62,903 nucleotides of DNA, filler included, from Asterionella formosa (GCA_002256025.1; 18 parts of 18 records of this genome joined end to end with filler, not necessarily neighbours in it); one strand, 5' to 3'; positions 4,662-62,903 are shown, numbered from the whole stretch's first letter. Translations and numbers: made by a program. The notes: generated from the sequence alone by a model not told the origin.

Positions 4662-5786
4662 ATGCTAAGAGCATTTGGTTGGAAAAAGGAAACAGAATGT
4701 TTGAATCTCGGAGTTGATTCATTTCCTGGTCCTGGTGCGTTTCAGGGATTATGGACATCTTCACAGAACTATTCCTTTGTGAATGGTAATGTTGATTCTG
4801 ATTTTGACACCAACGAGATTAGGAGTGAACATGACCAGCTAGAACGTGCAACACTATTCAATGCTGAGCTAGTGCTGGTTGATCCAGAACTTGCCAGTGC
4901 CTCTGTTGTTGACAGTAAAGCAGAAGCAAGGGCTCAATGTACTGCCTTGGTGCTATTTTTTGTAATTGGCTTGTTAGTAACCATCATACTTCCCACAGAG
5001 TACTTTGGACTCTTGACAAGTCTCACTGATCTAAAATTGAGGTACAATACTTTCACAGGCACACTTCCAACAGAGATTGGATGGGAAGAAGATGTCAAAC
5101 GGTTGAAAGCGAATGATCCAAGTTTGACTGAACTTGATCTCCGATGGAATTCAATTGGTGATGACGGAGCCAAGGCCATTGCAGAGGCTCTCAAGGTCAA
5201 TACTGTCTTGACTACACTTCATCTCTGTGGTAATTCAATTGGTGATGACGGAGCCAAGGCCATTGCAGAGGCTCTCAAGGTCAATACTGTCTTGACTACA
5301 CTTTATCTCCGATATAATTCAATTGGTAGTGTTTTACTAAATGATATTCAAAACCTGGTTAATGTAAACAAGAAGCGCAAGTCATTGGAAGAAAATGTCA
5401 AATGGTTAAAAGCGAATGATCCAAGTTTGATTGAACTTAATCTCTATGATAATTCAATTGGTGATGACGGAGCCAAGGCCATTGCAGAGGCTCTCAAGGT
5501 CAATACTGTCTTGACTACACTTTATCTCGATTATAATTCAATTGGTGACGATTTACTAAATGATATAAACAAACTCATTGATGCAAACAAGAACCGCAAG
5601 TCTTTGGAAAAAAATGTCAAACGGTTGAAAGCGAATGATCCAAGTTTGACCACACTTAATCTCGGACGTTATTCAATTGGTGTTGACGGAGCCAAGGCCA
5701 TTGCAGAGGCTCTCAAGGTCAATACTGTCTTGACTACACTTCATCTCTATCAGAATTCAATTGTTGATGATGGAGCCAAGGCCATT
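4662..5786 (+). CDS. Leucine-rich repeat protein: TM segment, one plant-specific-type LRR and RI-like/NLRC3-like 28-aa LRRs; 3' truncated by the contig end
   Basis: Hydrophobic segment ALVLFFVIGLLVTII, then LTDLKLRYNTFTGTLPTEIG, then repeated LxLxxNSIGDDGAKAIAEALKVNTVLTT units (84-bp repeats) and KRLKANDPSL caps. Confidence 0.88.
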
Positions 5787-55642: not shown

Positions 55643-56630
55643 CTAACCTTCGTGATTGGAGTCAACGGCAAGTTCAGGGATATGTGATATCGACGGGGCC
55701 AACCTTCCCCTCAAAGGAGTCTGCTTTCTATGCATACTTGCAACGGATCGAGCTGACGGGTATTCTGCAGATACCGATCTTCCCCTAAGAGACGAATGCT
55801 GTCCATGCTTTGTTCCAAAGGATCGATTCGAAGAGGAAGTATAGGGCGGATCGAAACTATCTGTAGTTGGTGTAATGACAACTGTTCTTCCGTTTGAGTC
55901 TTCCAACTGATCGAATCCTACAGCCACCGCTAGAGGCCGTCTTCTTGAGTTTTCTTTGTGTAGCAACTTGTCTGAATTGCTCGCTGGCCGAACGTTTCTG
56001 TCCTCTAGAGCAACCATTGTTGGGTCGGACATGACAGTCATGGTAGAGTCCACAGTGAATTCTTTTCCGTAAAGTAGTGCACTGTCCGCAGACAATGATG
56101 TTCGTAGGCCATCAATGTCTCTAGAGTATGAACCCTGACGAACAACAGCGTGAGTAAAATGTTTTGTCATCCAATCTCCATTAGAACAAAAGAAAACAAC
56201 AAGCAACAACAACGATCTTCTGCTAGTCAACACTGAAAGCTAATCGAGTATGGAACTCAAAACATAGTCGAAGATTCAGAGTCGACTCTTGGGCGTCGTG
56301 TTCACGAAGAAGAAAAGGTGTGTGAAATTCGGGTCGAGTTTCCATTGACCCGGTAGATTATAATTGCGAATTTCAATTCTTCAGACGATCTCGATCGTTG
56401 ACAAGAATCGATAAGCTTCTCACCTGTTCATGAGGGACCAGACTAACATTCGCCGAAGATACAAACGTTGTCAACAAAAAGCCACGAACTGCGGCCAACA
56501 TGGACGAATCCATTTTTGTGCGGGGGATAACTTTCCACTCGTTTTCTTCTTTCGACTCCACTGTCGATTCCTCTATTTCGACCTGCGGAGTGCCAAAGGA
56601 CGTCCAGGATGAGCTGAAAATGATCTCCAT
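55643..56630 (-). CDS. Hypothetical Ser-rich protein, exon structure unresolved
   Basis: Co-oriented ORF pieces (56630-56373 and 56233-55643) with coding-like composition. No recognisable domain. Confidence 0.35.
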
Positions 56631-57179
56631 TTCTTTGTGCATAGCTAGAATGTGATTGCCACAGTCGTAATAAAGAAAGAACAAGATAAAGTGTGCTAAA
56701 GTCACACTAAAGGAATCAAAAATTTGGCTGATAATAAATTTATATTTATGTAATGCACCCACGACGCATGATCCCAAGAAATTCGACTGGATACTTATAT
56801 ACATTAATATAAATTTAATAGAGCTAACAAGACCTAAATTTTTAACACATGCGTTGAGCGCTGCTGTTGAGTTTTGGTCAGTATGGGAACAGTTAATATA
56901 TAAATGAAAACTTTTATACTGTATCCGTTATTTGGAGGGTTAGTTGTGAGCAAGGTCAACCTTGACCAGGTGCACTCTAATGCTGTCACGGTCACTTCAT
57001 TCGTGACAGAGGGTTGGTCGAAATCTAGAACNNNNNNNNNNNNNNNNNNNNNNNNNNNNNNNNNNNNNNNNNNNNTTAATTAATTAANNNNNNNNNNNNN
57101 NNNNNNNNNNNNNNNNNNNNNNNNNNNNNNNTCAGGTACACATAGTACATTGGCATGTAGCTCCTACGGGCAAGCGATG

Positions 57180-57975
57180 AAAGTAGTGGTTCCAACTACT
57201 GTAATATACTCACTGCCTGATCAAGGACGGGGTCACACAAAACCTCGTGGGGAGTAATCCCCCTTTGTGTGATAGACTAGGACTACCTCCAGGTTTAAGT
57301 CTATCGGGTACGCAGCAATATGGAGGGACTGCATCTATACGTACGTTGTGATGAGAGTAGCAGGAGTCGTACGGCGAATGCGATGCTGCAGGAGCATAAT
57401 AAACCTGCACGGATCCATGCACCAACCGGGAGTAACGCACCCGGAGGGTACGGAAAGCTATTTTCCAGCAGCAATGGACCACCAGACCCTTATGGAAGAG
57501 GCCTAGAGTAATCTAGATCCGGACTGGCTCTCTGTGTAGGGAACGAACCTATAACCCGGTTAGTTCCCGAGGGGATTGCCTTGTATCCCCTCCATGGGTG
57601 GGGGCTACTATGGAGGAACCCGGTGAAGGATATCCAAGTGTAACCCGGATAAGTGGTTACTTGGAAGGGGAAGCATATGGGGACCATTACTGGGCAACCT
57701 GGAGAGCTAACTCCATTGTTACCCATATACGCATGGACAACATTCAAGGGAGGGTGCATTGTTCATGACACGACAATCAACCCCTCGGGTGAGGGGGGTC
57801 CAAATCCACGGACCCTATCGTATTTTCCATCATGTAGTAGCATCGTTCGTTCGTTCGTTCGTTCGTAAATTTTACAAAGAGGATTGCAATAACAAAACAT
57901 AAAGGAATAAAGACCCAAAGTTCACCTGTGTTTATAAAGCTGGCTAACACGTTATCTCGAACACACAGGTGAGTA
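57180..57975 (+). other. Hairpin-dense non-coding region (LTR or 5' leader) upstream of gag
   Basis: More than 15 short inverted-repeat pairs packed end to end, two closed by GTAA (GNRA) loops. Also (TCGT)6 at 57843-57866, AATAAA near 57906 and a possible LTR end TAACA at 57949. Confidence 0.7.
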
Positions 57976-57985
57976 CTAGCCCAAT

Positions 57986-58989
57986 ATGGTTCTATCTTTT
58001 CGCAACCATGCAGTCCACGCCAATGTAGCCGTGGAAGGTAATGCCGAAAGCATATCTCCCGAGCTCAACCAGATGGTCCTCGATCTTCTCCTAGTCGATC
58101 TTAGACATGCAGATGACCCCGATGAAGACGGGCATACTGATGCTGTTGCAATGAGAAAAATCCTCACCACCATGAAAGTGACTGGGATGGACAACCTGCG
58201 CAACGTCCTTAACGTTCACCAAATCCAAAGCCCAGCATTTATCAATTCAGTCCAACCTGCTCTCGATTGGCTTACTGTCCTAGCTAAGTGGCAGCTCTTG
58301 GACATCGAGGAGACCCCGGAGGACTTTGATGAGATGAAACATGAGGTGGCAGCTCGCTATACCCATGTAGCTCACAACTGGCCTACCCCAGCGGCTCTCA
58401 CGCACTGGGGGCCCGGGAACAAATCTGTCCAACGTATCTTCACTACACCTGTCCAGCAGCTCAGACAATTTTCCGGCGACCATGGAGATTGGCTGGAATG
58501 GAGCCAGCAGAGTATCGGGCATTTTGCAACCTCGAACCTCATCAAGGTAATCAAATCCCGGAACTATGCCCTCAAGAACCCCGACGAAAACGGCCTTGTC
58601 TGGGGCATGCTGGTTGCCTCCATCTCGACTACAGCGGTTGCTAGATTGGCACTCACTACCAAGGAGGAGCATGATGGACACGAAGCTTGGCACAAACTCC
58701 GTGGCTATTACGAAGGGGAAGAACTGGTCATTCACTGGATTAAAAAGTACAACAAGGTGCTGGACAATCTCCGCCTTACTGAAGGAGGATCTCTACGCGA
58801 GTTTCATAATTCGTTCACCGATTGTATGTGTAAACTTACACAGTACATGAAAATTGTTACGGAAAAGAAACTCAAAGCAGACGAAATCCCTGACAGTTAC
58901 AATTGGTGGAAGTTGTACACTGCCAAGTTGACTGACCCCAAGTATAACACGAAGGACGTCAAGGAGAGTCTCGAGAGGTACAAGGAGGA
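57986..58989 (+). mobile_element. Copia-type gag ORF, intact up to the contig end
   Basis: FSGDHGDWLEWSQQ, NGLVWGMLVAS, DGHEAWHKLRGYYEG and LDNLRL..SLREFHNSF resemble the copia gag capsid region. No stops in about 335 codons. Confidence 0.7.
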
Positions 58990-59112
58990 NNNNNNNNNNN
59001 NNNNNNNNNNNNNNNNNNNNNNNNNNNNNNNNNTTAATTAATTAANNNNNNNNNNNNNNNNNNNNNNNNNNNNNNNNNNNNNNNNNNNNACTTGTGAACT
59101 GTTACAACCATC

Positions 59113-59781
59113 ATGAACCGCATCCCTCTTCTCCTCCTACTCTTGGCTTTCGCCAATGTACAGGCTTTTGCACCCATTTCTTGCTTGCATCGAGGAACAG
59201 CGTTGAAGGTAAGAACTACGGAGTTCGCAAAATACCGGCTAGCGGCTATTACGAAAAGAGAACTCTATATTGCAATTTGAATACTATATATTGTGACTCA
59301 GTTAAGTCTTTCTCTCGAACCTCCCAAAATACAGGCTATTGTTGATGAAGTCACTGCGGAGATGAAAATCGCCATGAAGGCAAAGGATACTGCCACTCTA
59401 CAAGCAGTACGCCTCATTCGGAACGCCTTTGCCAACGCGGCCATTGAAGAAAGGACGGAAACATTGACCGATGAACAAGCACAGACGGTACTTCGAAAGT
59501 TGGCCAAAATGAGACAGGAGTCCATTGATATGTATGCAGCCAACGGGGCAAACGATCGTGCCGATGCCGAACGATCCGAGCTGGCAGTGATTGAGCGGTG
59601 GTTGCCAGCTCTAGCAGATGAATCGAAAACGAGAGCATGGGTGAAAGAGATCATTGCTGAAATGGGAGCGGAGAACCCAGGGAAAATCATGGGAGCCATG
59701 ATGCGTTCACACAAGGCAGAATTAGATGGAAATTTAGCTCAGAGGATTGTCAAAGAAGAGATTGCTGCTGCCAAAAGTTGA
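59113..59781 (+). CDS. Plastid-targeted GatB/YqeY-domain protein, 2 exons
   Basis: Exon 1 (59113-59208) encodes MNRIPLLLLLLAFANVQA-FAP. A phase-0 intron spans 59209-59301. Exon 2 encodes EMKIAMKAKD..VRLIR..KLAKMRQESIDMY..ELAVIERWLP..GKIMG. Confidence 0.9.
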
Positions 59782-60012
59782 AGATCGCTATTTGAAGAGT
59801 GCAGACTACTGGTTGCTCGATCAATGTTAATTTTGCTAACCAGTGTGGAGGCAATGTATGCTATAGCTAAGTATTAATTGTCTTTCTCGTTGATTTTGTT
59901 CACGACCACTGCAGCCTAGCTAATAACGATAGTACGATTTCATTCGGGAAGGCGTCTGCTACCGGATATTCCATCACCATCGCATGTTGCACTACTGCAA
60001 AACTCGATTTAC

Positions 60013-60921
60013 CTAGGGCGAATCATCCTCGTCACCACCACTACTTCGCTTTCTTGTAGCAAATTCCTTCAACACCTTTTGCATGTCCCCAAAGTCTTCA
60101 ACAAACCAACAAGATTTCTCCTTGACGGGCTCTCTCACGATCACACCACCAAATCCAATAAAGGCCTTTGCTGGTGGCTTGGCCTGCGCATCTGTCGCTC
60201 CATCGCCTACCATAACCATACACTTATAGCCATATTTCTCTTCAATCATCGCCAGTGCCGATGGCTTGCCCATGTCGCGACTGGTAGGCTCTTCTTCATC
60301 AAAGCCTATGTAATTCCCGGATGCATCGAACAAAATAGTGTTGGCGTAAATATTTTTCTTGCTGACGCAAACGGCAAAGGCAACTGGTTCAATCATGATG
60401 CGAAATCCGCCACTAACCAAATATACATCCTTCCCAACTTCCAGAAGCGTCTCGATCAAGTCTTCAATGCCTGGAGTCAATTGCAAAGGATTCTTTTCCA
60501 AGCATTCAAGAATCTGTCCCTTACTAGGCTTCAGTAACTCCAATCGTTGCCTCAATGCATCTTGAAACTTCATTCCCCCTTCCATCGCTTGTCTGGTGAG
60601 CGCGGCGACTGCTTCACCTTGTCCCAAATATTCTGCGAGAACATCAATGCCTTCTTCCTGAATTACGGTGCTGTCGACGTCAAAGCAGACAGCATCAGCA
60701 TTCACCAAGGCAGCCATGGCGTCAGCGACGGCCTTACCAACGAGGGGCTTGGTTCCAAAGGAAGCCATAATGTCAGCTCCGGAAGGGGCGAGCAACATTA
60801 AACTGGAGGAGTAGTTTCGAGTGCTTCGAAGGAAGGGAACAGCGCGTCTTGACAACGCATATGTGACAGCGGACATGGTGATGACAGCAATTGAGGAGGA
60901 CAGAAATGAATTGGCATTCAT
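60013..60921 (-). CDS. serB: Phosphoserine phosphatase (HAD family) with an N-terminal extension
   Basis: ADAVCFDVDSTVIQEEGID, LVSGGF, GKP and VMVGDGATD..PPAKAFIGFGG motifs in an intact ORF. Confidence 0.94.
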   Translation of the reverse strand: MNANSFLSSSIAVITMSAVTYALSRRAVPFLRSTRNYSSSLMLLAPSGADIMASFGTKPLVGKAVADAMAALVNADAVCFDVDSTVIQEEGIDVLAEYLGQGEAVAALTRQAMEGGMKFQDALRQRLELLKPSKGQILECLEKNPLQLTPGIEDLIETLLEVGKDVYLVSGGFRIMIEPVAFAVCVSKKNIYANTILFDASGNYIGFDEEEPTSRDMGKPSALAMIEEKYGYKCMVMVGDGATDAQAKPPAKAFIGFGGVIVREPVKEKSCWFVEDFGDMQKVLKEFATRKRSSGGDEDDSP

Positions 60922-62903
60922 GCGTTAGCCTTTATGCCCCGATGAANNNNNNNNNNNNNNNNNNNNNNNNNNNNNNNNNNNNNNNNNNNNTTAATTAATT
61001 AANNNNNNNNNNNNNNNNNNNNNNNNNNNNNNNNNNNNNNNNNNNNAAATGATTGAAATATTTGAATATTTTCTCGTCATACAGACAATGTTGATACAAG
61101 GCAACATATATTGTCTAGTGTAAAACGGATGACGGATTATTATGGTGCATAGATCGGTATGTGATGCATTGGAGAAATAACTTTCCTGTCTGGTATATAC
61201 TCCGTAACAGGTGCCTGCTACCTCCCCAAAGTGTGTCGATTTGCAGCAACTCAAGTGGTGCCAAGCAGTTTTTTTGGACGGATTACGTAGAAAATACTCC
61301 ATTTTTCTATGTGAGGGTCGGCTTACTCGAAAAAATGTGTTTTTTTATTAGTATTTCAGACGTGAGTATATATTAAATTATTAACATCTAAATATATGAT
61401 TCGAAACCAATTTAATATACATGTATTAACAGCTTACATGTGCATATCGCCAAATGCTGTTTTACATGGGCCGGCCTCTCAAATATTTGCAGGAAACTGA
61501 TTACAACATGTCACTATGATAACTATAACATGAATAAAGCACAGGTTGTTGCATATAAATTCTACGGTTGTTGCACTTACAAATACCATACCACCGGACA
61601 TGTGATGGTTCCAATCATCAAATCAAGTATACCGTCATTTTCGTTTTCGCCACTTTCGCAGTTGCGCATTCCATTGTCAAAGGCAAGTTACCGTTGTCCT
61701 ACTTTCACATCCTGCTTTGTATGTACGTTGAGAATAGATGGTTCAAAGAAAAAGGGTCCTCGTCGTTCATCTGCATTTTGATCGAGATGGCCATAAAGGA
61801 AAATTGAAAAACCCAAAAACGTTTTTGAAGCGTAGTTGCTTATTGTAAATTAACTACATTTGTGTTATAACTGGATATGTAGCGAAGCGCAGAGCACACA
61901 TAAGGGCAATGAAGCCGGAGAAAGTCGTACGAGTAAAAATGGCCCCAGAGAAATTTTAAGAATTGGCCAATGCATTCTTGTTTTCGCTAAGAGGGAGTAC
62001 CAAGTGTAATGGGACTTTTCCCAAACAGGGTTGAAAAAGAGAAAACTATTCGTAAATTCAACTGCCCATTGGCATTTACACCACAATTGCACCACCGATT
62101 GCACCACTGTTACTTAGAGAAACCAAAATTGCACCGTCAGATTATTCATTTATAAAATCCGTGCCACGGCCTGCACTACCGTAGTGATAGATTCTACATA
62201 GGATCACGATCAGATTCATAAAAGATATGTATTTTGTAGTAGCCAGCGGCCGTAGGCTACCCGGTGCATACATGTAATAAGACATACCGGTACTAATAAA
62301 GTATTGCTAGCATTTTGTAGTATCATATATATAGGTTACTACCGGTAATGAATTTTTAACTAAGGCACTCCTTGCTGACGTCATATTGTCGCTGCACCAC
62401 ATTGCACTACCATAGACCTACTGGTTCTACGGCATGTATTTAAAATACCGGAAGTAGAGATTTACATACCGGTAGATATATAGAAAATTAAATTGGGCAG
62501 AATAACTTCTTATTTTATGGAGTACCGGTCCGTGGTACCTGGTACCACTACCAGTACCAGGTACTTGGATGCGCATGCATATTGGTGTGAAATAATTTTG
62601 TTGGCATGAACTTTTCGTTGTCCTTGTCATTAAATATGGCGAAAACATATGATGGGTCTACAATTTGCCGAAATTCATATTTCATATTGCTACAGTTGTG
62701 CTCATTTGTATGAAGTGACGATCACTCATCACAGTAATCAATGAAGTCCATGCTGTCTAGTTAATCTCTGAAATACTACTAGCTACTAGCATGGTTTTAG
62801 TATGTTGTGACGGTTGCATGTTGGTAGTGCGACCACCATTCTAACAGCTCGTTGCATGCATGGATGTGATTTTAAAATACAATGTTAATGACTAGATATG
62901 ATC

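Follow-up and report, generated by a model that had tools for sequence, protein, structure and literature searches.

The structured domain of Ty1 genomic RNA reaches into gag behind a short 5' UTR, and the primer binding site (PBS) usual in copia elements is of the tRNA-iMet type. The Ty1 5' domain (TIPIRT) is reported to combine translation initiation, packaging, dimerisation through palindromic loops and tRNA priming (PMC5454406, PMC6844567). Balancing of Gag against Pol by more than one RNA pool together with splicing is described for BARE1 of barley and for the Arabidopsis EVD/Ty1-copia elements, which have one gag-pol ORF and use the splice to favour a gag-only RNA (PMC3735527, PMC5580714); for BARE, two TATA boxes and two starts are reported (PMC3735527). 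The CoDi elements of diatoms are reported to be copia-type elements which diverged from those of plants and fungi and in which no more than a single stop or frameshift separates gag from pol (PMC2806351).

The locus described here resembles Ty1 in being a Ty1/copia-type element with a possibly multifunctional RNA 5' region, a candidate domain known from sequence alone. Unlike in Ty1, this candidate domain is a non-coding leader of about 764 nt, and unlike in the usual copia elements the PBS is not of the tRNA-iMet type. A consensus splice donor in the leader and a step in the depth of polyA RNA would fit a scheme such as that of BARE and EVD. Unlike in these plant elements, gag and pol each have an ORF of their own, at a distance of 190 nt, with a predicted donor before gag and an acceptor-like site before pol, an arrangement in which a spliced RNA would encode Pol alone. 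With the CoDi elements as described, the element shares its copia type and algal host, and it differs from that description in having two in-frame stops and a stop-rich spacer of 190 nt between gag and pol. The HIV-1 leader has the order TAR, PBS, DIS, SD and Psi. Here the likeness is one of layout only: a 5' hairpin is followed by U5, the 18-nt PBS, a palindromic loop and finally, just before gag, a stem-loop with the donor; unlike HIV-1, the element has a copia-type RVT_2 pol, an unrelated gag and no env, and the sequences are not similar.

The contig and its relatives

The window, by which we mean the whole stretch of 62,903 nt that was analysed (1-62903), is composed of 18 contigs with joints of the form N44-TTAATTAATTAA-N44. 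The lengths of seventeen of these contigs decrease along the window from 1862 to 1857 bp, and the remaining one is 29.6 kb long. This long contig (11770-41362), which breaks the size order and holds nine ORFs of 200-1250 aa on both strands, may have another source than its neighbours. The hairpin-dense region, 57180-57975, sits on an unplaced contig of 1858 bp (57132-58989), further copies of which were not found among the other contigs of the window. On the contig at 59090-60946 there are an ORF of 303 codons on the minus strand (60013-60924) and one of 166 codons on the plus strand (59281-59781), which resemble ordinary cellular genes.

At least half of the sampled words of the 57132-58989 contig were present in 20 of the 24 listed public runs, which come from 10 studies and are mostly freshwater or algal metagenomes or metatranscriptomes. 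The match is nearly letter for letter, with 62-81% of sampled 31-mers found in these 20 runs. Six metagenome loci with about 94-97% DNA identity to the window contig were obtained in a metagenome scan, and 3048 contigs of a single algal DNA run, with a summed depth between tens and hundreds of thousands, could be aligned to the stretch of one of them, L002. The host is a widespread freshwater alga, in which the element is very abundant and occurs in many variants.

Three of the six loci (L001, L002 and L006) overlap themselves end to end, which gives a unit of about 6.69 kb in which separate ORFs encode gag (488 aa) and pol (1394 aa). The features which define the anatomy of the element in the window are as follows:

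57132..57524, plus strand: LTR of about 393 bp, delimited by the depth step, diverse flanks and a terminal inverted repeat
57525..57542, plus strand: primer binding site of 18 nt, with TGG right after the LTR and tRNA-like complementarity
57543..57985, plus strand: untranslated leader of 443 nt between the PBS and the gag ATG
57986..58989, plus strand: gag, the first 334 of 488 codons, followed by the end of the contig

Pol is absent from the window contig and the type of its reverse transcriptase was read from the relatives. Pol of L001, which is about 95% identical to the window contig, matches RVT_2 with an E value of 4.8e-17 and 62.8 bits against a cut-off of 31.6. Upstream of the reverse transcriptase (residues 902-1101) lies a weak match to an integrase core at residues 350-438 (rva_4, E 0.051, below the cut-off), and a DTG protease-like motif can be seen in pol by eye. 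Between the pol stop and the start of the window contig there are 72 nt, and in the relatives only about 926 nt separate this stop from the gag ATG, so the interval must accommodate one LTR and, besides it, the polypurine tract, the PBS and the leader.

The gag behind the hairpins had been described as intact in a reading of the sequence alone, which is not the case in the window, where the contig ends at 58989 after 334 of the 488 codons. The ORF starting at 57986 gives a weak match to Pfam Retrotran_gag_2 (E 0.004; its 17 bits fall short of the cut-off of 27), and its scores against the TYA and Retrotran_gag_2 clusters (Atlas) are only 0.85-0.86. Position before pol and a dN/dS of 0.20 in relation to L002 are compatible with a functional gag. 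Ten relatives of the gag protein, at up to 99% identity and 488 aa long, were found among 1554 candidates. The search for gag relatives in viral_contigs gave no pattern match, and a match in a Desulfopila MAG (genome_contigs), 37% over 43 residues, was discarded as being at chance level. Gag and pol are in the same frame, split by two in-frame stops and the 190-nt spacer (L001 1770-1964; also in L002, L003, L004 and L006), which has stops in every frame.

There is also a subfamily with a gag of 429 aa (P0004-P0008; L003 5273-5289) which is without 59 codons (177 nt) corresponding to 58260-58436 of the window. The missing segment is bounded by a short direct repeat, CAATTCAGTCCAAC / CAAATCTGTCCAAC, with a spacing of 177, and its loss looks like a template-switch deletion and not like an intron.

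LTR and primer binding site

The limits of the LTR were obtained by aligning contigs of four public runs on L002:3900-6810. Summed contig depth in two DNA runs from two studies, X2 and X3, is 2-6 times higher across approximately L002 4443-4840 than on either side (144k-331k inside the LTR against 34k-87k outside in X2, 48-118 against 21-25 in X3), and loose contig ends with differing flanks occur just before L002 4442-4445. The sequences GTCAGG (L002 4442-4447) and CCTGAC (4831-4836) form a perfect 6-bp terminal inverted repeat, which in the window copy reads TCAGG...CCGGAC. Purine-rich GAGGGGTG is found directly 5' of the LTR in all four loci that reach that far, and the 5' end of the window contig lies within 1 nt of the 5' end of the LTR. 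One diverged contig, present in both X2 and X3, follows the element for 4 nt past the proposed LTR end and then departs. As a check for rearranged copies we looked for a 14-letter motif from the loose end behind L002 4840, which was found in none of seven loci. No copy bearing both LTRs and a target-site duplication was seen among the metagenome loci and contigs.

The reverse complement of 57525-57542 ends in CCA and has the layout of a tRNA 3' end in textbook tRNA structure, with a one-base discriminator, a 7-nt acceptor strand and the 3' half of the T-arm. After one mismatch, at tRNA position 58, the six bases 57544-57549 are complementary to GGTTCG of the T-loop. Copying of a retroviral PBS stops at the modified A58. 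None of 25 positions in the PBS region differs between the lineages. The primer tRNA was not found, neither by ARAGORN, which reported no tRNA or tmRNA gene in the window, nor by a PBS-plus-T-arm pattern, which had no match in viral_contigs; the U1-A72/G73 pattern presumably points to tRNA-Asp as the primer.

It had been proposed that the junction of LTR and PBS is the TAACA/CGTTATC motif at 57945-57956. The copy-number step, the terminal inverted repeat and the tRNA-like complementarity place it at 57524/57525, and because the PBS directly follows the LTR at 57525 the proposed junction is about 420 nt too far downstream; the motif itself is part of the near-palindromic loop of the last hairpin. 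The accompanying proposal, that the structure lies inside the LTR, is right for about 345 nt of the hairpin-dense region and wrong for the about 430 nt which belong to the leader downstream of the PBS. That the region is non-coding sequence upstream in a retroelement was correctly recognised, and its identity and anatomy are those of the LTR, PBS and leader of a copia-type element. The explanation which we consider likely is that the region begins at the 49th base of the 5' LTR and continues through the tRNA PBS and the leader of a high-copy Ty1/copia-type retrotransposon of a freshwater alga, and that the surplus of hairpins serves the ordinary cis-acting functions of such a leader.

Hairpins of the LTR and leader

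The hairpins and the repeat tract to which we refer in the following are:

57233..57272, plus strand: first hairpin, a 9-bp stem TCACACAAA/TTTGTGTGA enclosing GGGGA-GUAA-UCCCC (stem scan and tetraloop scan)
57503..57516, plus strand: second GUAA tetraloop hairpin, CTAGA-GTAA-TCTAG (tetraloop scan)
57539-57568, 57569-57592, 57589-57616, 57633-57665, 57732-57767, 57781-57796 and 57796-57815, plus strand: leader stems, the first of which starts in the PBS (stem scan and local fold)
57843..57866, plus strand: (TCGT)6 microsatellite, the length of which varies between copies (TCGT insertion)
57922..57972, plus strand: last hairpin, a 10-bp stem TCACCTGTGT/ACACAGGTGA with a 5' splice site in its 3' arm (stem scan)

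Perfect Watson-Crick stems with loops of 3-35 nt were counted in 57180-57975 and in dinucleotide shuffles. The region has 15 stems of at least 6 bp against 5.18 +/- 2.22 expected, a number reached by one of 500 shuffles, and four stems of at least 8 bp against 0.33 expected, reached by none of 500. The adjacent part of gag has six stems of at least 6 bp (6.08 expected) and none of at least 7 bp. The same was observed in L002, which is 95% identical: its LTR and leader have 17 stems against 5.65 expected (0 of 300 shuffles), and there is no excess in its gag (11 against 8.74) or pol (28 against 25.43). The PBS and leader taken by themselves have nine stems of at least 6 bp where 3.19 are expected, as many as in one of 300 shuffles. 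The excess of hairpins is beyond chance, as the sequence-only reading had claimed, and it is limited to the non-coding part. All perfect stems of at least 6 bp listed in that reading, as well as both GTAA hairpins, were recovered at the same coordinates; the stem CATGGACAA/TTGTTCATG was recovered with one G-U pair, the 5-bp stem CCGGG/CCCGG is present in the local MFE structure and the (TCGT)6 tract was located at 57843-57866. The stems are indeed mutually unrelated, as no repeat family joins them.

Folding of the whole 796 nt gave z-scores of -3.44 for the plus strand and -3.32 for the minus strand (100 shuffles each, none as low), and -3.14 and -3.87 with 20 shuffles. The plus-strand score is therefore far from zero, but it is equalled by that of the other strand. 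Segments of 120 nt have a mean plus-strand z of -0.96 in the non-coding part (19 segments) and -0.21 in gag (22 segments), with -1.93 as the lowest plus-strand value. These values are only mildly low, which indicates that the signal is the sum of many small hairpins and not one strong domain.

We infer that the hairpins act as RNA, and the following functions may be attributed to individual ones. They would present the PBS to the primer tRNA; they may take part in dimerisation and Gag-mediated packaging, for which the two identical GUAA hairpins and the palindromic loop are the candidates; and the last hairpin could control the 5' splice site which it encloses. In the relatives the loop of the first hairpin is GCAA, which keeps the GNRA type, and one change from C to U turns a pair into G-U. 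The hexamer GAGTAA occurs at 57252, 57430 and 57506, three times against 0.26 expected (4 of 2000 shuffles), for a motif picked post hoc. The loop of the last hairpin is a near-palindrome, TAACACGTTA, and in the relatives a perfect one, TAACATGTTA.

The hairpins could instead be features of the DNA, or neutral ones, i.e. palindromic protein-binding sites in the LTR or inverted duplications produced by template switching of the reverse transcriptase, with no RNA fold under selection. We regard this as unlikely. Selection on RNA pairing on the plus strand had been suggested from G-U pairs and GNRA loops. Stems of at least 8 bp which contain G-U pairs number six on each strand, and in this respect, as with the symmetric z-scores, the strands behave as expected of DNA-level or neutral features. 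The loops point weakly to the plus strand, where two of five tetraloop hairpins have GUAA and no GNRA loop is found on the minus strand; two identical GUAA tetraloops on the plus strand only are not expected of such features. Five of six transitions in six well-defined stems lead to G-U on the plus strand and one to A-C (hand tally; one-sided binomial about 0.11, not significant), and in a smaller tally the number is four of five (binomial 0.19).

The tests of conservation compare what are effectively two lineages about 5% apart, and their power is low because there are only two. A compensatory change was found in one of 254 predicted pairs (57626/57687, A-U against G-C in the local MFE structure), which is equalled by 234 of 500 shuffles, so the check for covariation among homologs came out no better than shuffles at this divergence. 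Arm positions of stems perfect in either lineage differ in 10 of 234 cases and positions elsewhere in 32 of 619 (p 0.72). With symmetric z-scores and G-U counts, no covariation above shuffles and no additional conservation of the arms, strand-specific selection on pairing is not upheld, and all of these results are in accordance with hairpins that are not maintained as RNA. Template-switch events in this family of elements are moreover indicated by the 177-nt direct-repeat deletion in the related gag. Against this stand the persistence of 12 of the 15 stems of at least 6 bp in the other lineage and the excess in the leader downstream of the PBS, which is outside the promoter-bearing LTR, as well as the slow change of the non-coding part. 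Its divergence K is 0.051 (42/853) and the dS of gag 0.110 (22/214.5; Fisher p 0.006). The non-coding rate is about half the synonymous rate and the arms do not change more slowly than the rest, which means that the LTR and leader are constrained overall and the stems in particular are not. Overall constraint on the sequence of the LTR and leader is thus observed in the comparison of the two lineages.

One group of gag sequences which is 88% identical (P0003, with 17 member sequences on 3 contigs) has an N-terminal extension that reads as LTR-like sequence joined to the last bases before the ATG. As far as can be judged from protein letters only, this implies a type of copy in which the first hairpin and some 630 nt of leader are missing, and suggests that much of the leader may be dispensable in the P0003 lineage.

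Transcription and upstream ATGs

Two further features within the LTR are connected with transcription:

57200..57209, plus strand: TGTAA followed by a variable TATA-like sequence, TAATATAC (alignment of relatives)
57221..57231, plus strand: hinted RNA 5' end at 57221-57222 and RNA 3' end at 57231, with an R of about 10 nt possible (X6, one study)

The hairpin-dense region is present in RNA-derived contigs, since 8 of the 20 runs that contain it are RNA by record, and the assumption that it is transcribed is in accordance with this. A contig of the metatranscriptome X6 begins at L002 4532, directly after the letters of an Illumina adapter, and continues through the leader, and another contig of this run, coming from pol, stops at L002 4542. 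The X6 contigs at L002 4532-5134, 5105-5182 and 5155 onward have depths of 42.8, 11.6/31.3 and 50.8, and the depth is about 42-51 into gag-pol. The transcript probably starts within the LTR near 57222, for which this one study gives a weak hint. TGTAA (57200-57204) is identical in all five aligned rows, the next base being T, A or G, and the box stands 20-30 nt upstream of the hinted start. We regard 57200..57209 as a candidate promoter and/or poly(A) signal in U3, a function that we in part presume.

The polyA run X20 has a contig of 5.6 kb which spans pol, LTR and leader without interruption at a depth of 113.6. Higher values, 290-1340, are confined to the part between about L002 5174-5223 and 6167 and are 3-10 times those of the LTR, the remaining leader and pol. 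The raised zone (L002 5174-6167, or approximately 57858-58852 of the window) covers the last 80-130 nt or so of the leader and about the first 870 nt of gag. Depth of DNA from the same sample is flat across L002 5174-6167, and that of the X20 RNA contigs is low at L002 6154-6349. Either a second start downstream, producing a short RNA near gag, or strong expression of a single truncated copy may underlie the step. Since the copy number of the DNA in the same sample is huge, the signal of X20 in the leader is possibly due to DNA carry-over or read-through.

If transcription starts at 57222 the 5' UTR is about 764 nt long and contains nearly all of the listed hairpins. There are 13 ATGs in 57222-57985, several of which open ORFs of 42-63 codons, and the upstream ATGs of the sequence-only reading were accordingly confirmed. 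A hidden ORF in the leader was considered and rejected, as L002 and the window do not share the same open frames of 60-100 codons. Leaders of plant pararetroviruses are known to let ribosomes shunt past upstream ATGs, and the leader might similarly be a translation device, an IRES or a platform for ribosome shunting past the 13 ATGs to that of gag. The number of these ATGs with their ORFs and the density of hairpins are what such a device would show, but the upstream ORFs are not kept between the lineages, no IRES family of Rfam is matched, and the depth step of X20 about 80-130 nt before the gag ATG, if real, would mean a downstream start and a short leader. We find this explanation rather improbable.

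A self-cleaving ribozyme or a captured cellular structured ncRNA, for which nothing but the density of stems speaks, is extremely improbable: none of 4227 Rfam families matches at E <=1 in 56000-62903 and no relevant one at E <=10 in 57505-57575 (where a single PhotoRC-I match, 7.6 bits against 45, is at chance level), the window has no tRNA or tmRNA, and LTR, PBS and leader account for the whole region.

Splice signals and a possible Pol mRNA

The preferred explanation, an LTR, PBS and leader with ordinary cis-acting functions, leaves a place for splicing in the last hairpin. Its 3' arm holds AG|GTGAGT (57967-57974, plus strand), which matches the 5' splice site consensus and precedes the gag ATG by 17 nt. 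The pattern AGGTRAGT occurs once on both strands of the 6.8-kb relative, at the position in the leader, with 0.43 expected. Ahead of pol, a CTAAC resembling a branch point is followed by a pyrimidine tract and by AG|G, which ends at the same distance of 17 nt from the pol ATG, a combination which is unique in the element with 0.32 expected; both expectations refer to patterns that were written after the sites had been seen. The acceptor-like site is identical in four of five loci, and in L003 there is one T fewer in the pyrimidine tract.

Because the spacer between gag and pol has stops in all frames, a spliced Pol mRNA is a reasonable hypothesis. Foamy viruses make Pol from its own spliced mRNA. 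The donor at 57967-57974 would be joined to the acceptor-like site before the pol ATG, giving a spliced mRNA which encodes Pol alone, the last hairpin would gate the 5' splice site, and the two GUAA hairpins of U5 would serve as the packaging mark of the unspliced RNA. Taken together, the leader would run a two-RNA programme similar to that of retroviruses and undescribed for copia-type elements, with a donor-acceptor splice, Pol from its own mRNA, a hairpin gating the donor and GUAA hairpins which select unspliced RNA for packaging. We put this programme forward as a tentative possibility.

Conclusions

The region that had been proposed as a large structured RNA is explained by the LTR, PBS and leader of a retroelement and should therefore not be carried forward as a new class of RNA. 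Its density of hairpins is real but a fairly ordinary feature of retroelements. The retroelement itself is well delimited and apparently active, with a gag which is under purifying selection and a hairpin-dense region that occurs in RNA runs from several studies. For a copia element it has a leader that is unusually rich in hairpins and unusually long, and it offers the testable hypothesis that Pol would be made from a spliced RNA in an understudied group of hosts.
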